Notes: generated by a model not told the origin, from the sequence alone. Shown: positions 2,958 to 12,726, numbered from the stretch's first letter. The stretch is DNA of 64,000 nt from Novosphingobium sp. (GCF_027489515.1 NZ_JAIXZS010000083.1:123686-187685); one strand, 5' to 3'. Translations and numbers: made by a program.

Positions 2958-3797
2958 TCAGCGACGATAGTAGTCTTCGACGTTGAGGAAGGCGCGCAGG
3001 CCCTCCGGCGTCGCGGTGCGGATGGGATCGTCTTCGGCGGCCACCGGCCCGCGCCATGCTGTCGCGCGCAGGGGGGTGACGGTGTAGTCAGGCCGGGGAT
3101 CGAGCACGTGGGGGACGTTGGCGATCACCACGATGACCTCCATCTCGGCGCGCAGGACGACTTCGCGGCCCGGCTCGAAGGGGCCGATCTGCGGCTCGAT
3201 GGTGCCGTCATCGGCAATGCGCGCGCCCTTGAACAGGGTAACGGCGGCGTGGATATCGCGGCGCTGAAGGCCGTGCTTGGCGGCGCCGAGGAGGAAGCGG
3301 TCGCGGCCGTTGGGGAACTGCCCGCTGTTGCGTCCGTCGCCATACTTGGCGGCGTTGGTGTAGGCGTTGGAGGTGCCGGAGAACGTATCGTGCGCGCCGC
3401 CGGTCGTGTCCTCGGCAATGCTCATCAGGACGCGGCCCATATCGGACAAGAGCAGCTTGCCCGCGCCGAGATAGGCGTTCCACTGGATCTTTACCGTATC
3501 GGCAAAGCTGTAGCGCTCGGTCGGCATTTCGGCGTTGAAGATCTGGAAGCTCGCGCAGGCATCGCCCTTCGCGTCTATGAGGCGCAAGCGCGCGCCGCGC
3601 GGCAGGCGGCGGGTGGCGTAGCCGCCGGGGGCCAAGGTTTCCTCCCAGAGCAGGTCGGACGCAGGGACGCCTTCGGGCAGGTCCGGCGCGGCGGGTGGGA
3701 GGACGGGCATCGCCTCCACCACGGTGCCGCCTTGCGCACGGGCGTGATCGCGGGCTGCGTTGGGATTGGCCAGAATTGCTGCGGGCGTTGCGGTCAT
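2958..3797 (-). CDS. cgdA: DUF1989 urea-carboxylase-associated protein 1 (carboxyguanidine deiminase subunit)
   Basis: ERYSFADTVKIQWNAYLGAGKLLLSDMGRVL, ANVPHVLDPRPDY. Paired with the second DUF1989 gene. Confidence 0.85.
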   Translation of the reverse strand: MTATPAAILANPNAARDHARAQGGTVVEAMPVLPPAAPDLPEGVPASDLLWEETLAPGGYATRRLPRGARLRLIDAKGDACASFQIFNAEMPTERYSFADTVKIQWNAYLGAGKLLLSDMGRVLMSIAEDTTGGAHDTFSGTSNAYTNAAKYGDGRNSGQFPNGRDRFLLGAAKHGLQRRDIHAAVTLFKGARIADDGTIEPQIGPFEPGREVVLRAEMEVIVVIANVPHVLDPRPDYTVTPLRATAWRGPVAAEDDPIRTATPEGLRAFLNVEDYYRR

Positions 3798-4267
3798 GCG
3801 GCGGCTCCCTGCGGCGCATCGGCTTCGGGCTCGTAGAGCTGCGGAAGGAGCGCGGTGGTGGTGACGAGTTCGAGCTGCTGGACCCCGCGCACGCGCCGCA
3901 GCGCGTCCGACAGATCCTTGAGACGGGCGGCGGGGCCCTGGACGAGGAGCACCTCGAGCGATTGGTCATCCTCGAGGAAGACGTGCTGCGAGGAGATCAC
4001 TTCCTTGAGATAGTGCGCCTGCGTCTGCGCGAGCTGGTGGCGCACGCGGCCGCGTTCGCCGCGGTAGACGAGCGTGATTGTGCCGGCGAGCATCTCGTCG
4101 GGCCGGGTGAAGGCCTCATGCGCGGCAAGCGCATGGCGGATCAGCTCGGCCATGAGCTGCGAGCGCGAAGGGAGCTGGCGCTCGGTCACCATCATGTCGA
4201 GCTTGCGGAACAATTCGGCCGGAAGGCTCATGCTGAGCCGGGCGAGGCCTGTGGGTTCTGGACTCAT
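3794..4267 (-). CDS. NikR-fold transcriptional regulator (ribbon-helix-helix plus ACT-like domain) with degenerate nickel site
   Basis: ATG at 4267 (MSPEPTGLARLSMSLPAELFRKLD...SRSQLMAELIR) with purine-rich RBS. The C-domain AGTITLVY...QHVFLEDDQSLEVLLVQG aligns by eye to NikR. Stop overlaps the cgdA start. Confidence 0.8.
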   Translation of the reverse strand: MSPEPTGLARLSMSLPAELFRKLDMMVTERQLPSRSQLMAELIRHALAAHEAFTRPDEMLAGTITLVYRGERGRVRHQLAQTQAHYLKEVISSQHVFLEDDQSLEVLLVQGPAARLKDLSDALRRVRGVQQLELVTTTALLPQLYEPEADAPQGAAA

Positions 4268-4280
4268 GGGCTGTTCTCTC

Positions 4281-5060
4281 TCAGCTGGCGGCAGTTGCGG
4301 GCTGGGGCGCGGCTTCCGGCTCCGGGGCCGGGACCGGGGGGCCGCGCAAGGGGAGGTCGTAGACGGCGGTCGCACCGTAGCGGTGCGGCGCGTGGGGATC
4401 GTGGCGGCGCTTGTCGAGCGCAAGGACGCGCGTGCCGAGCGTGAAGGCTTCCTTGATGTCGTGCGTGACCATGACGACCGTGAGCGCATAGTCGCGCCAC
4501 AGGCGGGTGATCAGGCCATGCATGTCGGCGCGAATGCCGGGATCGAGCGCGCCGAAGGGTTCATCGAGGAGGAGGATGCGCGGCCGCTTGATGAGGGCCT
4601 GCGCGATGGCGAGGCGCTGCTGCATGCCGCCCGACATCTGCGCGGGGTAGAGGTGGAGGCTGTCTGCAAGTCCGACCGCTTCGAGCATTTCGGTTGCCTG
4701 CGCCTCGGCCTTGCGACGGGCAGCGCCGAAAAGCCGCGCGGCAAATGGGGCGGCCGGGCATTCGAGGCCGAAGGTGACGTTGCCGAGAACCGTCATATGC
4801 GGGAAGACCGAATAACGCTGGAAGACGACGCCGCGATCGGGCCCGCACTGGGGGGTGAGCGGCTCGCCGTCGAGCAGGATCTTGCCGCGCGTGGGCGCTT
4901 CCTGCCCGAGGATGAGGCGCAGCAGGCTCGATTTGCCCGCGCCCGAGGGGCCGATGATAGAGAGGAAGGCGCCTTCGGCCACCTGGAGGTTGACCTTTTC
5001 GAGCACGACTTTGTCGCCGTACTCCACCCAGACGTTCTTGAGCTGGAGGAGCGCGTTCAT
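4281..5060 (-). CDS. ABC transporter ATP-binding protein (NitT/TauT type)
   Basis: Start MNALLQLKNV at 5060. Walker A GPSGAGKS, signature MSGGMQQR, Walker B LLLDEPFGALD. Confidence 0.93.
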   Translation of the reverse strand: MNALLQLKNVWVEYGDKVVLEKVNLQVAEGAFLSIIGPSGAGKSSLLRLILGQEAPTRGKILLDGEPLTPQCGPDRGVVFQRYSVFPHMTVLGNVTFGLECPAAPFAARLFGAARRKAEAQATEMLEAVGLADSLHLYPAQMSGGMQQRLAIAQALIKRPRILLLDEPFGALDPGIRADMHGLITRLWRDYALTVVMVTHDIKEAFTLGTRVLALDKRRHDPHAPHRYGATAVYDLPLRGPPVPAPEPEAAPQPATAAS

Positions 5061-5872
5061 CTGCCGTCTCCATGGGCCCAGGGGAATGCGCGCTTGCTGA
5101 TCGCGGCGAGCGTCACGTCCATCAGGATGGCAAGCAGCGCGATCCACGCGACGTAAGGGATGATCACGTCCATCGAGAGATAACGGCGGACGAGAAAGAT
5201 GCGGTAGCCGAGACCGATATCGGAGGCGACGGCTTCGGCGGAGATAAGGAAGACCCACGCCGGACCGAGCGCAAGGCGGATCGCCTGGAGGAGGCGCGGC
5301 ATCGCCTGCGGCAGCGCAACGCGGGCGATGATCTGCCACGAGTTGGCCCCGAGGGTCTCGGCCTTGATGATCTGCTCGCGTGGCAGGCTGCCTACATGCG
5401 CGGCGATATCGCGGACCATGACGGGCGCAACGCCGATGGCGATGAGGACGACCTTCGAGGTTTCACCGAGGCCAAGCGCGATGAACAGGATGGGCAGCAG
5501 CGCAATCGGCGGGATCACCGCGATGCCGGTGACCAGCGGGCTCAGCGCTGCGCGCACCGGCGGCAGCGCGCCGATGAGCAGGCCAAGAATAAGTGCGAAC
5601 AGCGTCGCGATGCCAAGCCCCAGTCCGAGCCGCTGGAGGCTGGCAAAGGTATCGGCCCAGAACACGAGGTTGCCCGAAAGCGGATCGGGCGTGGTAAGCA
5701 GATCGGTGATCGCCTTGGCCATCCCGGAGGGGAGCGGGAAGATCTTGTCTGACGGGTTGGCGGCATGGCGCTGCACCGCGGTGATCAGGTAGAACACCAA
5801 GAGCAGCAGGATCGGTGCACCGCCCGCAATCAGGCGGTCACGCCTCGAAAGATGCCAGTTGATCCAGCGCAT
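5057..5872 (-). CDS. ABC transporter permease (NitT/TauT type)
   Basis: Multiple hydrophobic segments and an EAA-like loop (IKAETLGANSWQ). Overlaps the ATPase start. Confidence 0.9.
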   Translation of the reverse strand: MRWINWHLSRRDRLIAGGAPILLLLVFYLITAVQRHAANPSDKIFPLPSGMAKAITDLLTTPDPLSGNLVFWADTFASLQRLGLGLGIATLFALILGLLIGALPPVRAALSPLVTGIAVIPPIALLPILFIALGLGETSKVVLIAIGVAPVMVRDIAAHVGSLPREQIIKAETLGANSWQIIARVALPQAMPRLLQAIRLALGPAWVFLISAEAVASDIGLGYRIFLVRRYLSMDVIIPYVAWIALLAILMDVTLAAISKRAFPWAHGDGR

Positions 5873-5876
5873 GCGC

Positions 5877-6983
5877 TCAGATCTTCCCGTCTGCGGCGAG
5901 CTTCATGAAGCTGTCGTCGAAGCGCAAGGTGACATTGGCCCCATCGCCGAGCGTCTTGCCGCCGGGGAACGCGATGCCGACCGCATCGGCGGAGGTGGCG
6001 CCCTTGAACAAGCCCTTGGAAAAGCTGAAATCGCGCACCCGCGTCATTGTGGTGACCAGCGCAGGGGACTGCGCGGCGGCGACGGCGGCCTTGGGATCTG
6101 TGTATAGGAAGGTCGTCTTTAGCTGGCTGTCGAAGGTTTCGGGCGCGGCGCCGGCGAGCTTGGCCATTGCGGCGCGCGCTGCCTTCCCTTCGGCATCCTG
6201 CCGCATCATCAGTTGCACGGTATCGTACCAGATGCCCGCGAGCGCCTTGCCGAGATCGGGGTTAGCCTTGAGCGTGGCGGTATCGACGACGAGGAGATCG
6301 AGGATCTCACCCGGAATGTCGGCCGAGGAGAACACCTGCGTGACACCGGGTTGCGCGCGCATAACCGAAAGCTGCGGGTTCCACGCAACCGCCGCGGTCA
6401 CATCGGCGCTGGCGAAGGCGCCGACGATATCGGCATCGGCGGTGTTGACCGTCTTCACGTCGGTCATGCCCATTCCGCCCTTTTCCAGCGCGCGGGCGAG
6501 GAGGTAGTGCGAGACCGAGAGCTCCACCAGATTAACCGAGCGGCCCTTGATGGCGCTCAGGCTGGTCGCGCCCTTGAGCAGCACGCCGTCGTTGCCGTTC
6601 GAATAGTCGCCAAGGATGACGGCGGTTGTGTCCTTGCCGCCGGCCGCCGGGATCGTCAGCGCGTCCATGTTGGCAAGGGTGACGCCGTCGAGTTTGCCGG
6701 CGGTGTACTGGTTGATCGATTCGACGTAGTCGTTGACCTGCACGATCTTGATCTTGAGGTGGTATTTGTCCTCCCACTTTTTCACGATGCCGGCCTGCTG
6801 CGCATAGGGCCAGGGCATCCAGCCGGCATAGATCGACCAGCCGATGCTGAATTCGCTCTTCTTTTCAGCCGGAGCATTGCTGCCGCCTGCGCAGCCGCCA
6901 ATTGCAAGCGTTGTAGCAAGCGCTGCGGCAAGGAGAGAACCGGTGAGCGCCCGGCGGGGCCTGGCGGGGGAGGTGTTTGACAC
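5877..6983 (-). CDS. ABC substrate-binding lipoprotein of urea-carboxylase-associated (guanidine) transporter
   Basis: GTG at 6983 preceded by AAAGGAGA. Lipobox-like LAIGGC. WSIYAGWMPW and DYSNGNDG motifs are typical of this SBP family. Confidence 0.85.
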   Translation of the reverse strand: MSNTSPARPRRALTGSLLAAALATTLAIGGCAGGSNAPAEKKSEFSIGWSIYAGWMPWPYAQQAGIVKKWEDKYHLKIKIVQVNDYVESINQYTAGKLDGVTLANMDALTIPAAGGKDTTAVILGDYSNGNDGVLLKGATSLSAIKGRSVNLVELSVSHYLLARALEKGGMGMTDVKTVNTADADIVGAFASADVTAAVAWNPQLSVMRAQPGVTQVFSSADIPGEILDLLVVDTATLKANPDLGKALAGIWYDTVQLMMRQDAEGKAARAAMAKLAGAAPETFDSQLKTTFLYTDPKAAVAAAQSPALVTTMTRVRDFSFSKGLFKGATSADAVGIAFPGGKTLGDGANVTLRFDDSFMKLAADGKI

Positions 6984-7042
6984 GATTCTGTCTCCTTTCG
7001 CAGTGCAGCATTGCGAGAAACAATCCACTTGTCCATGCCAAA

Positions 7043-7070
7043 ATGTTACGTTCCTGAAAAAACGTAATAC
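7043..7070. promoter_or_regulatory. Candidate operator 1, ATGTTA-N16-TAATAC (core TGTTACGT-N10-ACGTAAT)
   Basis: Inverted repeat about 60 bp upstream of the SBP start. Its 6-16-6 geometry matches the E. coli NikR operator GTATGA-N16-TCATAC. A second copy lies at 7273-7300. Confidence 0.6.
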
Positions 7071-7267
7071 CATCTCCATGCAGGGCCGCGCAGATTCGGC
7101 GAATCAGGGGAGGGGTTCGCGGGCATTGTGTTGATTCGGCGCAACGGCTGCAGGCTGTGGTGTGCGCCTTGAGCCGATCGATGCGGCAGTTGCACAGGAA
7201 AAATACCAAGGATTTCCGCAGTGCAGCGGAGGGTGGATAATACCGGGATCGTGTCGAATTATTACGC

Positions 7268-7300
7268 TTGACCTGTTATGTAATATCGATAACGTAACTG
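7268..7300 (+). promoter_or_regulatory. Putative sigma70 promoter TTGACC-N16-TAACGT overlapped by candidate operator 2 (TGTTATGT-N10-ACGTAAC)
   Basis: TTGACC at 7268-7273 and TAACGT at 7290-7295. The palindrome at 7274-7298 has the same half-sites and spacing as operator 1. Confidence 0.55.
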
Positions 7301-7676
7301 AAATGTCGCAGAAGGAGCAATCCTTTGCGGCGCAAGCAACGACATTTCAAGTCAGGCGAATGCTTGTCTGGCGGCGATATTCTGCACGGCACAGTCGATG
7401 CGGGAGCGTTGGTGTGTGTTTTCGGTAATAGTTTGCGAAAGCGGGCAGCAATCACGAGATGATGTATTTGCTGGATGACGGGCCCTTCAGGTCGAATTGC
7501 CTCTTGGTTCATCTGGCGTCTTGAAGAATACGATCGCCTTCATGGTGATTGTGAAGTGAGGGAATGACGACGGCGCCAGAACTGCAAACGGTTCGGCGCG
7601 CCCCGCGCAAAGTGGGCAAACAGGGATGGGGATGTCGCTTCGAGAAGGCTTTCACGCAGGCAACGCGGGGGCTCGA

Positions 7677-10115
7677 GTGACCAAGAAATCTTTCAAGACG
7701 ACACTGGCCAAACAGGCCCTGTTCGGTGCGACGATCCTGATGGGCAGCACCGCTTTTCCCGCATTGGCGCAGATTGCGCCAGAAGCTGCGGGTGACGCGC
7801 CGCAGGCGGCAGCGGTCGAGGACAATAGCGCCATCGTGGTGACCGCCACCCGGCGCGCGACGTCGCTGCAGGACGTGCCGATCAACATCACCGCGGTAAG
7901 CGCCGACCAGCTTGCGCGCCAGCGCATCGACGACGTGCGCGACATCGCCGACTTCACGCCTGGCATCACGATTGCGGACACCGGTCCGGGCTCGACCGGC
8001 ACAATCGTTCTGCGCGGCCTCAACGCCTCCGACTCTGACACGACCGGCGCAACCTATGACAACGCGCTGGGTGTCTATCTCGGCGAAGTCCCGCTCTACT
8101 TCGACTTCAAGATGCTCGATATCGCGCGCGTCGAGACGCTGCTCGGTCCGCAAGGCACGCTCTACGGTCTCGGTACGCTGGCGGGCGCCATCCGCAACAT
8201 CCCCAACCGTCCGGACACGACCAACTACAGCGGGGAAATGCACGGCCGTCTTTACGCCAAGAACCAGGCCTCGAAGGCCGGTTATCAGATCGACGGCGTG
8301 ATCAACATTCCGATCGTGAAGGACCACATCGCCTTCCGCTCGGCGACCGGCTACTATTTTGACCCGGGCTTCATCGATTATCCGCTGATCGTGAAGACGC
8401 CGGGCGTCTCCCTGCCTCAGGCGCCCCGCTCGCCCGCGATCACGCAGGCCTTCGCCGATGCAAACTTCGCCGGGCAGAAGGATCTCAACTATGAGAAGAC
8501 CTTCACCACCCGCAACCAGCTGCTCGTGCAGGTGACGCCCGACCTCTCGGTCGATTTCACTTACGCCTTCCAGCACACCAAGACCGGCGGCGGCCAGTAC
8601 AACAGCAACGGCGTGTTCGGCACCGGCAAGTATGAAAGCGCGGCCCGCTTTGCCGAGCCCGTGGATCGCCGCGCGCACCTCGCCAGCGTGGAGATCAACG
8701 CGAATGTTGCGGAAATCTTCGATCTTGTCGCCACCACGGCCTACACCCAAGTGAAGAACAAGCGGATCGGGGACAACACCGACCTCCTGCTCGATCTCGA
8801 CTATGACTACGAGCTGTTCCCTGCCTTCACCAGCTACAACGAGAGCGAAAACACCCGCAACCAGTTCAACAACGAGGTCCGCCTCGTCTCGACACATGGC
8901 GGGCCGTTCAGCTGGGTGCTTGGCGGGTTCTTCAACGAGCAGAAGCTGCAGGCCGATTACCGCGAACACGTACCGGGCCTGCCCGGCGTCGATCTGGTGC
9001 GTAACCCCGAGGAGATCGAGTACGCATCGTTCAACCGCGCCAAGATCAGCGAGCGCGCGGTGTTCGGCGAGGGTACGTTCAAGATCACGCCGGAATGGCA
9101 AGTCACGGCGGGCGGACGTCTGTTCAACTACACGTCGAAGGTTTCGGGGCGCGCGGTCACGCCGCTGCTGGGCGATCCCATCAGCCCCTATGCCCTCACG
9201 GCAGCCGGCGGGACGTCGCGCAAGGGCGGCAACGTGTGGAAGTTGAACACGTCATACAAGTTCTCGTCGGGCCTGATGCTCTACGCGACCTATAGCAAGG
9301 GCTATCGCATCGGCGGACCCAACACGGTTGCCCCTTGCGTGCTGCCGCTCAAGCCGCCGCCGTTCCAGAACGTCTGCGCGTTGCCGAACGAGCAGCAGTT
9401 TGGCCCGGACTCGACCAAGAACCTCGAGGTGGGTATCCGCGCCGAGCTGTTTGACCGCAAGCTGACCTTGAACATGAACGCGTTCAAGATCGATTGGGAC
9501 GGCATCCAGGTCGCCTCCGCCACGGTCAACGGCATCGTCGGCATCACGGTCAACGGCGGCAAGGCGAAGTCCGAAGGTTTCGAGACCTCGTTCCAGCTGC
9601 GGCCCATCGATGGTCTGTCGATCCAGGGGACCTACTCGTACACGAACGCAAGGCTGACGCAGGACGTTGCCAAGATCATCTCGGTGAACAGCCCGGCCGG
9701 CAAGTATCCCAGCTCGCCGATCCAACTCGACGCGCTGAGCGGTGACCGCCTGCCCGGCTCGACCCGGCACAGCGGCAGCCTTGGTATCAACTACACCAAG
9801 CCAATGCTGGGCGGTGATGTCACCGCCGACTGGACCGCGACCTATCGCGGCGACGTCGTGACGCGTCTTGGCTGGGACCGCGCCTTTGGTGACAAGCTGG
9901 ACGGCTTCATCCTGCACCGCGCTTCGCTGAGCTGGCAGAATGATACGTTCACGTTCGGTCTCTACGCCAACAACATCTTCAACAAGTACGCGGTGACAGC
10001 GATTTCCAACGACCGTTCGCGGATAGGTGTCAACGACGGGGTGCGCCTGCGCTACTTCCGCCGCACCGTGATCACCCCGCGTACTGTCGGACTGGAGTTC
10101 CGGGTGAAGTACTGA
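7677..10115 (+). CDS. TonB-dependent receptor
   Basis: Signal peptide, IVVTATRR TonB-box region, plug signature ETLLGPQGTLYG, aromatic C-terminus EFRVKY. Start uncertain (GTG 7677 or ATG 7626). Confidence 0.93.
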   Translation: MTKKSFKTTLAKQALFGATILMGSTAFPALAQIAPEAAGDAPQAAAVEDNSAIVVTATRRATSLQDVPINITAVSADQLARQRIDDVRDIADFTPGITIADTGPGSTGTIVLRGLNASDSDTTGATYDNALGVYLGEVPLYFDFKMLDIARVETLLGPQGTLYGLGTLAGAIRNIPNRPDTTNYSGEMHGRLYAKNQASKAGYQIDGVINIPIVKDHIAFRSATGYYFDPGFIDYPLIVKTPGVSLPQAPRSPAITQAFADANFAGQKDLNYEKTFTTRNQLLVQVTPDLSVDFTYAFQHTKTGGGQYNSNGVFGTGKYESAARFAEPVDRRAHLASVEINANVAEIFDLVATTAYTQVKNKRIGDNTDLLLDLDYDYELFPAFTSYNESENTRNQFNNEVRLVSTHGGPFSWVLGGFFNEQKLQADYREHVPGLPGVDLVRNPEEIEYASFNRAKISERAVFGEGTFKITPEWQVTAGGRLFNYTSKVSGRAVTPLLGDPISPYALTAAGGTSRKGGNVWKLNTSYKFSSGLMLYATYSKGYRIGGPNTVAPCVLPLKPPPFQNVCALPNEQQFGPDSTKNLEVGIRAELFDRKLTLNMNAFKIDWDGIQVASATVNGIVGITVNGGKAKSEGFETSFQLRPIDGLSIQGTYSYTNARLTQDVAKIISVNSPAGKYPSSPIQLDALSGDRLPGSTRHSGSLGINYTKPMLGGDVTADWTATYRGDVVTRLGWDRAFGDKLDGFILHRASLSWQNDTFTFGLYANNIFNKYAVTAISNDRSRIGVNDGVRLRYFRRTVITPRTVGLEFRVKY

Positions 10116-10254
10116 GCGAAGTACTTCGTTTGGGGGGATGACTGCACAATAGGGGGCGGGGTTGATCCTCGCCCCCGATTGCGCAATCCTGCTGCAGCAA
10201 AGGCTGGCAGCAGAACAGGATAACGAGCAACAACAGGCGAGGAGTTGCAGGGTC

Positions 10255-11145
10255 ATGAGCTTGGGCTTGAAGAAGCTGGCGGTCGATTGCCTTCCGCCCG
10301 CGACATTGGCGGCGGTGGTGGCATTCTGGTATTTCGCGCCTGCTGCAGTGGTCGCGAACCCGTGGACTTCGCTCATCGTCAACGCCGTTGTCACGGCATT
10401 CGTACTCGGCCTCGAACTCGTTTTCGAACGTCACGCCGGTTGGCGGATCAACCGCGAGGAGTTCTTCACCGATCTCTTCTACTTCGTGCTGATCAACACC
10501 GTGATCGGACGGATGGCCTATATCCTTTCCGAAGCACCGCTGCGTTCGCTCAAGGAATCCTGGGGCATCGCGACCCCATGGGTGACTGAGATGCCGTTCC
10601 TCGCCCAGGTCGCGCTTGTCGTGTTCCTGTGGGAATTCGGCCAGTATTGGATGCACCGGCTGATGCACAACTGGGAGCCCTTCTGGCTGACCCATGCACC
10701 GCACCACCACATCACGCAGCTCAATGCCATGAAGGGCGCTGTCGGAAACCCGATCGAGCTGTTCCTGATCAGCCTCGGCATCGTCGCCTTGCTCGACGTT
10801 TCCCCGGCGGCGTACCTCTGCGCGTTTGCCACGACCAACGTGATCGCAACTTATGCCCATGCCAACGTGAAGAGCGATCCGCCGCTGTTCTACAGCTTCT
10901 TCTTCACCACGATCCGCCACCACAGCTTCCACCATTCGGTGGGTTATGAAAACACCCGCTGCAACTATGGCAATTCGCTGATCCTGATCGACCGGATGTT
11001 CGGCACCTACAAGGAAGGTGAGGGCGTGCTTGTCGGACAGGACGACCGCCGGCGGCTGACGATCTGGGAGCAGTTCGTGTTCCCGTTCAAGCCGCTGATC
11101 GAGATGGTGGAGCGGCGCAAGGACAAGTCGTCCGCTGCCGGATAA
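10255..11145 (+). CDS. Sterol-desaturase / fatty-acid-hydroxylase family membrane di-iron enzyme
   Basis: Three His boxes HRLMH, HAPHH, HHSFHH plus transmembrane segments. ATG at 10255 has a GGAG RBS upstream. Confidence 0.85.
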   Translation: MSLGLKKLAVDCLPPATLAAVVAFWYFAPAAVVANPWTSLIVNAVVTAFVLGLELVFERHAGWRINREEFFTDLFYFVLINTVIGRMAYILSEAPLRSLKESWGIATPWVTEMPFLAQVALVVFLWEFGQYWMHRLMHNWEPFWLTHAPHHHITQLNAMKGAVGNPIELFLISLGIVALLDVSPAAYLCAFATTNVIATYAHANVKSDPPLFYSFFFTTIRHHSFHHSVGYENTRCNYGNSLILIDRMFGTYKEGEGVLVGQDDRRRLTIWEQFVFPFKPLIEMVERRKDKSSAAG

Positions 11146-11154
11146 ACCCGCGGC

Positions 11155-12726
11155 GTGAAGGCTGAACCAACCCGCATTGCCGCCGTCCGCCGCGCACTGG
11201 GGCGCAGCGATTTCGCGGCGGCGGAGCAGCTGGCGGCTAGCGTCGTGGCCGCCTTTCCCGAGGATGCCGAAGGCCGGTTCCTGCTTGGCATGGCGCGGGC
11301 AGAGGCTGGGCGCGTCGGGGCAGGGATCGCCGATATTGCCCGCGCGGTCGAACTTGACCCGCGAGGCAGCTACCGCGCGCAGTTGGCGCGGCTGCAGGTT
11401 ATGTTGCGGCAGGATGGGGAGGCTGCGCAGACGCTGGCGGCGGCCGAAAGCGCCTTGCCGGACGATGCGCTGGGCCGCGATACGATGGGCTGCGTCTATG
11501 CCCGGCTCGGCGAACACAAGGCGTCGGTGCCGCATTTTCGCGCGGCGGTGCAACTGGCTCCGGGCAACGTTTCGTTTCGCTACAATCTTGCCGCCGCGCT
11601 CAACTTCATCGGCGATACGGACGGCGCTGAGGTGGAGGCCGAAGCGCTGATCGCGCTCGATCCCGATTATGCGAGGGGCCATCACATGCTGGCCGGGCTT
11701 CGCAAGGTCAGTGCCGAGCGGAACCATGTCGAGCGGCTGACGGCGGCATTGGCGCGCGCGCAGGCAGCTGATGCACGGTTGCTTCTGGGCTATGCGCTGG
11801 CGAAGGAGCTCGAGGATATCGGCGAGCAGCAAGGGGCGTTCGCCCGGCTTGCTGAGACGAATGCCGAGCACCGGGCGCGGCTGCCTTATGTATTCACGCG
11901 CGACGGCGCCAATTTCGACGCGATCGAGCGGACCTGGCCGCGCCTAGTGCAGGCGCCGGTGCGGGGGGCTCCGCAGGATGCGCCGATCTTCGTGATCGGG
12001 ATGCCGCGCACCGGCACGACGCTGGTGGACCGCATCCTCTCCTCGCATCCCGAAGTGTGGAGCGCGGGCGAGCTGCAGGCGATGCCGCTGGCGGTGAAGA
12101 TGGCAGCAGGGACGCGCAGCCGCGTGGTGCTCGATCCCGAGACGCTGGAGGCAGCAGCGAGCGCCGATCTCGGCGCCATCGGGCGTGATTATCTGGCACG
12201 GGCGCGCACCCACGCCGGGGCGCGCGAGGGGCGTTTTGTCGACAAGTTTCCGGGGAACTTCCAGTACGCCGGGTTTATCGCGCGGGCGCTGCCCGAGGCG
12301 CGAATCGTGTGCCTCAGGCGCCATCCGCTCGATACGGTGCTGGCGAACTTCCGGAACCTCTTCGCGATCTCGTCGCGCTATTACGACTACAGCTACGACC
12401 TCATGGACATTGCGCGCTACTATGTGCGGTTCGATCGGCTGATGGCACTCTGGTGCGAGGCGCTGCCGGGCCGGATCCTCGAGCTTGGTTACGAGGATCT
12501 GGTGGCGGATCAGGAAGGCGGGACGCGCGCGCTGCTAGCGCATTGCGGGCTGGCATGGGATGCGGCCTGCCTCGATTTCCACCGCAACACCGCGCCGGTC
12601 TCAACCCCGAGCGCAGCGCAAGTGCGGCGGCCGATGTACAAGGATTCGGTGGCGCGCTGGACGAGGCACCGGGACACGCTGGCCCCGGTGATCGCATACT
12701 TCGAGATGGAAGGGATCGCTATCTAG
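11155..12726 (+). CDS. TPR-repeat-containing sulfotransferase family protein
   Basis: N-terminal TPR-like helices. 5'-PSB loop IGMPRTGTTLVDRIL, DKFPGNF, RHPLDT, and C-terminal TPSAAQVRRPMY. Confidence 0.85.
   Translation: MKAEPTRIAAVRRALGRSDFAAAEQLAASVVAAFPEDAEGRFLLGMARAEAGRVGAGIADIARAVELDPRGSYRAQLARLQVMLRQDGEAAQTLAAAESALPDDALGRDTMGCVYARLGEHKASVPHFRAAVQLAPGNVSFRYNLAAALNFIGDTDGAEVEAEALIALDPDYARGHHMLAGLRKVSAERNHVERLTAALARAQAADARLLLGYALAKELEDIGEQQGAFARLAETNAEHRARLPYVFTRDGANFDAIERTWPRLVQAPVRGAPQDAPIFVIGMPRTGTTLVDRILSSHPEVWSAGELQAMPLAVKMAAGTRSRVVLDPETLEAAASADLGAIGRDYLARARTHAGAREGRFVDKFPGNFQYAGFIARALPEARIVCLRRHPLDTVLANFRNLFAISSRYYDYSYDLMDIARYYVRFDRLMALWCEALPGRILELGYEDLVADQEGGTRALLAHCGLAWDAACLDFHRNTAPVSTPSAAQVRRPMYKDSVARWTRHRDTLAPVIAYFEMEGIAI

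Follow-up and report, generated by a model that had tools for sequence, protein, structure and literature searches.

A NikR-fold protein lacking the nickel site as probable regulator of a guanidine operon and a divergent TonB-dependent receptor cassette in Novosphingobium

What links a set of guanidine genes to the TonB-dependent receptor cassette that is transcribed away from it? The question is raised by a 64,000-nucleotide stretch of a Novosphingobium sp. genome of 4.29 Mb and 65% G+C (GCF_027489515.1 NZ_JAIXZS010000083.1:123686-187685), referred to below as the window, in which the two gene sets are separated by a divergent control region of 640 bp. An initial annotation had placed twin palindromic operators in this region and had proposed that a NikR-like protein encoded in the guanidine operon represses transcription in both directions from them. 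Comparison with about 100 loci of Sphingomonadaceae points to two operators of the form TATTAC-N14-GTAATA, termed OpA and OpB. The best explanation, which we hold with good confidence, is that both are bound by a NikR-fold regulator without a nickel site, which would thus join the two gene sets.

OpA occupies positions 7044-7069 (28-bp footprint 7043-7070), reads TGTTAC-N14-GTAATA and agrees with the family core at 11 of 12 positions; from its end, 60 nt on the minus strand lead to the GTG start (6983) of the substrate-binding gene of an ATP-binding cassette (ABC) importer. OpB, at 7260-7285, is a perfect dyad, TATTAC-GCTTGACCTGTTAT-GTAATA, with 12 of 12 matches. A scan of the whole genome returned no sites with at least 11 of 12 matches to the core besides these two. 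Relatives of the regulator numbered at least 391, counting one genome per species, and the best 80 loci among them were compared; nearly all belong to Sphingomonadaceae (Novosphingobium, Sphingobium, Sphingomonas, Blastomonas, Croceibacterium and Stakelama). One or more sites scoring at least 11/12 were found in 74 of these loci and exactly two in 55, and the remaining six come from short contigs on which the upstream region is missing. In total, 149 unique operator sites were obtained from the 80 loci. Frequency matrices for 78 unique class-A and 71 class-B sites showed nearly invariant half-sites and variable spacers. TATTAC-N14-GTAATA was found at the OpA position in 15 of 16 orthologous loci fetched from the same genus and in nearly all of the 80 loci that include the region, and the consensus of OpB over 71-75 unique orthologous sites is aAtTATTACgCTTGACg...Ta.GTAATAtc.ata.c. 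Presence and absence were scored in 61 related genomes, in which the exact 26-mer motif was detected in all 17 regulator-encoding genomes, in none of the 20 genomes of the same genus without the regulator, and in 1 of 24 genomes of other families, the last figure being about background as given by the rate of a reversed-pattern control.

Does this element have the character of a NikR operator? Written as nTATTAC-N14-GTAATAn, it is a 28-bp dyad, in which the left half-site of OpA is TGTTAC. The predicted delta-proteobacterial NikR signal is GTGTTAC-N13/14-GTAACAC, with one listed site reading GTaTTAC (PMC545781), and the footprinted operators of Helicobacter pylori NikR follow TRTTA-N15-TAWTA and have half-sites centred two helical turns from each other (PMC5385501). 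Both the half-site and the geometry of the window element agree with these published operators, namely an inverted repeat of 28 bp with half-sites about two helical turns apart. The nikABCDE operator of Escherichia coli is GTATGA-N16-TCATAC. The initial annotation had likened the spacing of its palindromes to the latter; the 28-bp layout does fit, 7-N14-7 being equal to 6-N16-6, but the half-site is not that of E. coli. On these comparisons, OpA and OpB are very probably docking sites for the operon-encoded NikR-like protein. Another factor might instead bind the palindromes, or they might be promoter or UP-element sequence, with the NikR-like gene a bystander; the AT-rich half-sites do resemble UP elements, and other conserved blocks adjoin both operators. 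We regard this as extremely improbable, since presence or absence of the motif tracks the NikR-like gene perfectly across the 61 genomes, the dyad symmetry and half-site agree with footprinted NikR sites, an operator stands before the regulator gene itself in many relatives, and it is the half-sites that are invariant and the spacers that vary.

The operator had been defined differently in the initial annotation, as TGTTAYGT-N10-ACGTAAY, on the basis of TGTTACGT-N10-ACGTAAT at 7044-7068 and TGTTATGT-N10-ACGTAAC at 7274-7298. Both strings are in place, and a genome scan for GTTAYGT-N10-ACRTAAY found two occurrences only in 4.29 Mb, namely these two, 0.01 being expected in the window by shuffling. 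The first site contains the conserved core and corresponds to OpA. The second was found to be mis-registered by 14 bp, the true operator being 7260-7285, and the centres of the true operators lie 216 bp apart instead of the proposed 230 bp, with a spacing among relatives that ranges from 104 to 348 bp. The second dyad (7274-7299, TGTTAT-N14-GTAACT) overlaps the right half of OpB and has only a GTAAT stretch in common with it; its outer half (GTAAC, 7294-7298) overlaps the conserved -10 of the receptor promoter. It is lineage-specific, being present in the window and its seven nearest relatives (L039-L045) only, and these are too similar to the window to show selection on it. In the next relatives (L067, L049, L058, L061, L072 and L118) the outer half is gone, while 7260-7285 stays perfect, and no more than 8 of 75 orthologous sites have at least 10 of 12 matches at the offset of the second dyad; 7260-7285 was therefore preferred as the conserved site. 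The proposed conservation of the 8-N10-8 motif in orthologous regions was not borne out: at a threshold of at least 13 of 16 matches it is absent from all 16 same-genus loci, and in the frequency matrix its inner CGT/ACG positions are not conserved. As a family operator it was rejected. That the literal motif is the operator after all, as its uniqueness in the genome and the retention of the second dyad in the seven nearest relatives might suggest, has a low probability, and the second dyad would be at most a third, overlapping site in this clade.

What kind of protein would bind these sites? The regulator gene (3794-4267, minus strand) encodes 157 aa with RHH and NikR_C domains in Pfam; NikR_C (PF08753) reaches 74.2 bits, well over its cut-off of 22, and RHH_1 scores 19.8 bits, just under its cut-off of 20.5. 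It is the sole NikR_C protein encoded in the genome. Its best solved relative is Pyrococcus horikoshii NikR (2bj1), to residues 3-132 of which the regulator aligns from its residue 8 with an E-value of 2.6e-22. The DNA-reading strand, R10-x-S12-x-S14, is invariant in 95 orthologs and is the same in the P. horikoshii and H. pylori proteins. The high-affinity square-planar nickel site of E. coli NikR is made up of His76', His87, His89 and Cys95. Opposite His78, His89, His91 and Cys97 of P. horikoshii NikR, the regulator has A84, H95, F97 and S103, and in the 95 orthologs these columns hold Ala in 76 cases and another small residue in the rest, His in all 95, Phe in 90 and Val in 5, and Ser in all 95, whereas canonical NikR relatives in the same search retain HHHC. 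The regulator also falls below all curated NikR cut-offs (NF003381, 91.9 vs 105; NF002169, 84.5 vs 111; TIGR02793, 54.5 vs 175). Because three of the four nickel ligands are replaced, it cannot, as judged from these alignments, work as an ordinary nickel sensor. Its effector is probably a small molecule instead of nickel, obvious candidates being guanidine or a pathway or nitrogen-status metabolite. The protein is thus assigned the NikR fold but is not filed as a nickel-responsive NikR, because the defining nickel site was found to be replaced. Many public NikR-fold proteins (P0145-P0271) were likewise observed to be without the HHHC signature (for example, RHQR, RHFS and RRLV), which suggests that several non-nickel NikR-fold branches may exist and may even be common.

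An ordinary nickel regulon is one alternative, and public annotation does label the regulator as nickel-responsive. The protein would then sense nickel, the receptor would import a nickel complex, and the nickel-free carboxylase of the guanidine operon would be switched on when nickel is scarce, as a form of metal sparing. In its favour, H. pylori NikR controls the outer-membrane receptors FecA3 and FrpB4 (cited in PMC5385501), Desulfovibrio has a nickel-independent isozyme under repression from a predicted NikR site (PMC545781), and the alternative known route for guanidine depends on a nickel enzyme (PMC11410670). Nevertheless, all 95 orthologs have conserved A, F and S in place of three high-affinity ligands, and the scores fall below every curated NikR cut-off, which is difficult to reconcile with nickel sensing. 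Furthermore, a urease alpha subunit was not found in the genome, no operator was found elsewhere in the genome and hence no nickel-transporter targets, and the regulator gene is always embedded in cgdAB/carboxylase operons. A nickel regulon is therefore considered very unlikely.

How would binding of the NikR-fold regulator to OpB and OpA affect transcription? On the receptor side, a candidate sigma-70-type promoter lies at 7268-7295 on the plus strand, with the -35 hexamer TTGACC at 7268-7273, a 16-nt spacer and the -10 hexamer TAACGT at 7290-7295; this pair had been pointed out in the initial annotation, and it proved to be conserved. The -35 is held within the spacer of OpB, which starts GC-TTGACC, and TTGAC is present in 70 of the 71 class-B sites, followed by a -10 of the form TAnCGT. 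The right half-site of OpB falls between the two hexamers, and the transcript of the receptor unit is predicted to start near 7302. On the importer side, the conserved region between OpA and the importer gene (6984-7035, minus strand) contains TGGACA (7035-7030) as a candidate -35, a 17-nt spacer and AATGCT (7012-7007) as a candidate -10, with a ribosome-binding site within GCTGCACTGCGAAAGGAGA, 3' of the candidate -10. The consensus below OpA, from 68 loci, reads GTAAtAtttt..gaTgGACAag-N17-.ATGcTGCa.TGCgAAAGGgGa...aTCaTG. TGGACA/AATGCT is the best reading of the importer promoter and would give a short leader, with OpA about 8 bp upstream of the -35 and centred near -56. A sigma-54 promoter was considered and rejected, as only weak 8/11 matches were found (7137, 7387 and 7571), none of them in a conserved block and none beside OpA.

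From this arrangement a working mechanism can be proposed. A tetramer of the NikR-fold protein would bind OpA and OpB. At OpB, the bound protein would cover the -35 and the spacer, block RNA polymerase and so repress the unit of receptor, hydroxylase and sulfotransferase genes; repression is expected here because the operator spacer encloses the -35, and the right half-site is placed between the two promoter hexamers. At OpA, the bound protein may occlude upstream promoter contacts, which would amount to repression, or may activate, as has been discussed for H. pylori ureA. The proposal that both directions are repressed is therefore well founded at the receptor promoter, which OpB straddles, and less so on the importer side, where OpA lies upstream of the candidate -35. 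In the simplest model, the free protein would repress all its promoters and an effector would release it. This model fits because an OpB-like operator-promoter with an embedded TTGAC is found directly before the regulator gene, about 43 nt upstream, in many relatives; the same cassette suggests that the regulator is autoregulated in those relatives. In the window, no third, autoregulatory site was found before the regulator gene.

A dual output would be the main departure from this model. The effector-bound protein would activate the importer and carboxylase genes from OpA and repress the receptor unit at OpB, so that guanidine would shut off the scavenging of its precursor. The placement of the two sites, with OpA upstream of the conserved candidate -35 TGGACA and OpB astride a -35, would fit such a scheme; moreover, ligand promotes DNA binding in NikR proteins, and H. 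pylori NikR has been described as both activator and repressor (PMC9860126, PMC5385501). However, in many relatives a promoter-occluding operator of the OpB type lies directly before the nikR-like-cgdAB-carboxylase genes, and the effector would therefore switch that catabolic promoter off, which makes little sense. The promoter at OpA is itself only predicted, and it has been questioned whether H. pylori NikR acts directly as an activator (PMC5385501). We judge a dual output to be rather unlikely, and binding of both operators with release by an effector remains the preferred mechanism.

Several observations weigh against this preferred explanation. OpA does not overlap the hexamers of the best candidate promoter, which makes simple repression less certain at this site. 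All promoters were assigned from conservation only, and a generic scan with the sigma-70 consensus called no promoter. Part of the operator conservation comes from closely related genomes. The conserved loop YRGDRGRVRHQ of the regulator is rich in Arg and might be a better fit for an anionic effector than for the guanidinium cation. Finally, the distance between OpA and OpB is not conserved and so gives no hint of cooperative looping; with spacings of 104-348 bp, loop formation between phased operators was rejected as unsupported.

Do the genes on both sides then form one regulon? Divergent from the guanidine operon, a unit at 7677-12726 on the plus strand encodes, by Pfam, a TonB-dependent receptor (7677, GTG, to 10115), a membrane enzyme of the FA_hydroxylase family (10162-11145) and a TPR-sulfotransferase (11155-12726). 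In most of the 16 same-genus loci, genes for the receptor, hydroxylase and sulfotransferase lie close to the guanidine operon, in variable order and orientation. In one locus (L030), two OpB-type sites precede a hydroxylase-sulfotransferase pair 8 kb away, and in another genome (G036) a perfect OpB-type site precedes a second, unlinked receptor-hydroxylase pair on a different contig (C1). Homologs of the hydroxylase were detected in 16 of 17 regulator-positive and in none of 44 regulator-negative genomes. Because operators are found at both divergent promoters and before unlinked receptor and hydroxylase genes, and because the hydroxylase occurs only with the regulator, the carboxylase, CgdAB, importer, receptor, hydroxylase and sulfotransferase very probably make up one regulon. 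The single regulon proposed in the initial annotation has thus gained strong comparative support from both operators and co-occurrence.

The other half of this regulon is transcribed on the minus strand in the order ABC importer, nikR-like gene, cgdA, cgdB and biotin carboxylase. The importer genes (4281-6983) comprise the binding protein (5877-6983), which is assigned to TIGR03427 (ABC_peri_uca) with 520.6 bits against a cut-off of 334, a permease (5057-5872) and an ATPase (4281 to about 5075), the last two being BPD_transp_1 and ABC_tran in Pfam. The genes cgdA (2958-3797) and cgdB (2305-2943) encode the DUF1989 pair and exceed the cut-offs of TIGR03425 (294.7 vs 206) and TIGR03424 (336.9 vs 285), respectively. 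The first 724 codons of the carboxylase gene occupy 3-2174, with the codon for Asp703 at 66-68. When the carboxylase was aligned to 3va7/5i8i, Asp703 was found opposite Asn1330 of the Kluyveromyces lactis enzyme and the Asp of a GLGDV motif opposite K. lactis Asp1584; Asp at the equivalents of both K. lactis 1330 and 1584 marks guanidine carboxylase as distinct from urea carboxylase (PMC11410670). An allophanate hydrolase, scoring 723 against a cut-off of 511, is encoded just beyond the window edge, after the carboxylase. On the evidence of the Asp/Asp mark, CgdAB, the importer and the adjacent allophanate hydrolase, the label of guanidine operon is justified for the minus-strand genes.

How does this locus compare with systems already described? 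Nearest to it are NikR with its operators and the guanidine carboxylase operons under riboswitch control. Guanidine metabolism was uncovered through riboswitches, and carboxylase operons controlled by the guanidine-I (ykkC) riboswitch are found in Pseudomonas syringae, Raoultella, Nitrosospira and others. The window operon shares with these an importer with a TIGR03427 protein, CgdA, CgdB, an Asp/Asp carboxylase and an allophanate hydrolase. Unlike them, it has protein operators at the promoter level and includes a divergent outer-membrane receptor unit. Across the whole window no Rfam family came up to its gathering score, and in 6900-7700 none matched at E<=5; hence no Rfam guanidine riboswitch is present in the window. 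With NikR systems the locus has in common a regulator with the RHH and NikR_C fold and the R-x-S-x-S strand, a regulator gene beside its targets, and a 28-bp dyadic operator with a near-identical half-site and half-sites two helical turns apart; as in the H. pylori system, the regulon includes an outer-membrane receptor. It differs from them in the A/H/F/S ligand set of its clade, in scoring below the curated NikR cut-offs and in its targets, which are guanidine import and breakdown together with receptor, hydroxylase and sulfotransferase genes rather than nickel transporters or enzymes, in a genome in which the search for a urease alpha subunit came up empty. Divergent regions of the TetR/tetA type are similar in that the regulator is encoded in the locus, several dyads lie in the intergenic region, an operator overlaps a -35/-10, and autoregulation is suggested in relatives. 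The window protein has another fold, however, and its operators are 104-348 bp apart and unphased, with one of them upstream of its promoter. In the literature searched, no description was found in which a NikR-like protein regulates guanidine or urea carboxylase genes; such a system was not known to the initial annotation either. What this window adds is a regulon that takes in the receptor cassette, a revised position for the second operator, and a leader RNA.

This leader RNA lies upstream of the receptor gene, at 7570-7692 on the plus strand, and consists of two hairpins followed by GATGTCGCTT, which would pair with the region of the start codon. These elements take up the 110 nt before the receptor start: the first hairpin is P1, the second, P2, carries an insert whose length varies, and the helix is formed by GAUGUCGC and the start-codon region. 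The start-codon helix covaries, as GUCAC/GUGAC, as GUCAU or GUCGU with AUGAC, and as GCCGC/GUGGC. Consensus folding with RNAalifold recovered this helix alone, and the two hairpins were drawn by hand. In the resulting 20-pair structure, 86.6% of cells are paired, compared with 24-42% when the partners are slid, changes on both sides are seen in 13 of the 20 pairs, and none of 500 shuffles reaches the observed values; the structure was drawn from the same sequences that were used to score it, which favours it somewhat. A covariance model (R1) gives one match per genome, always before this receptor and always downstream of OpB, and it also matches the unlinked receptor locus of G036, which was outside the training set, with an E-value of 1.3e-15. 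No Rfam family matches the leader. The start of the receptor was revised to the GTG at 7677, on the basis of a conserved GGGGG ribosome-binding site and a conserved AGTGAC. An N-terminal extension from the ATG at 7626, which would give the longest open reading frame, was rejected, as the conserved GATGTCAC is out of frame in some relatives such as L088. Pairing of the structured leader with the start codon of the receptor mRNA would add a second layer of control to the one proposed at OpB.

What might the whole regulon be for? As a tentative proposal, to which we give considerably less credence than to the binding of OpA and OpB, the regulator could be a sensor for guanidine or a metabolite of its pathway, the receptor, the membrane di-iron hydroxylase and the TPR-sulfotransferase could capture and process a larger guanidino compound, and the receptor could be gated a second time by a ligand-responsive leader RNA. 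One possible step would be hydroxylation next to a guanidino nitrogen, which would lead to the release of guanidine. If this proposal is true, the regulator would be the first protein sensor for guanidine. For guanidine metabolism, the locus offers a candidate switch made of protein instead of RNA; it has a sharply defined operator, is widespread in Sphingomonadaceae, and may be a case of a metal-sensor fold put to use for a non-metal signal. The receptor, membrane hydroxylase and sulfotransferase are linked to guanidine use by the operators they share and by strict co-occurrence, and this three-gene link points to a natural source of guanidine, or a guanidino substrate, that has gone unrecognised. 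The pair of operator and regulator could also serve as a biosensor part.

OpB is flanked, on the side away from the receptor promoter, by a further conserved block (7195-7250, minus strand) of the form CGGTATTA ... GCTGCACTGCGGAAA ... TTTTT. Its consensus reads gctCAGTATGA-N10-GCTGCAcTGCAcAAAA, followed by a short hairpin and TTTT. The block is also kept at an unlinked receptor locus (L120, about 8050-8150), and a related GCTGCAcTGCGAAAGG is found at the same distance from OpA as the block is from OpB. The block might serve as an upstream site for an activator, or it might give rise to a short divergent transcript.

In more distant metagenomic relatives (50-61% identity), the regulator gene likewise sits between the binding-protein gene and cgdA, and in one of these, which shares 61% identity and adjoins cgdA, the start is preceded at about 60 nt by a perfect operator. 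A second NikR-like gene was observed in several Novosphingobium genomes (L027, L032-L035, L085, L091, L093, L098, L105 and L111), placed between the divergent unit and the binding-protein gene, with three or four operators per such locus; its identity with the window regulator is 74-84% in the five loci measured.

The source genome encodes two more FA_hydroxylase paralogs outside the window (C9:118261-119148 and C9:229140-229997), with 51% and 43% identity. One of the two lies about 5 kb past the allophanate hydrolase gene, and no operator scoring at least 10/12 was found near either of them. In Novosphingobium rhizosphaerae (L061), the entire island is carried on a 672-kb plasmid, and in the genus Novosphingobium it was found in 17 of 37 genomes. 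The plasmid location and this distribution suggest that the guanidine island acts as an accessory, possibly mobile, module.

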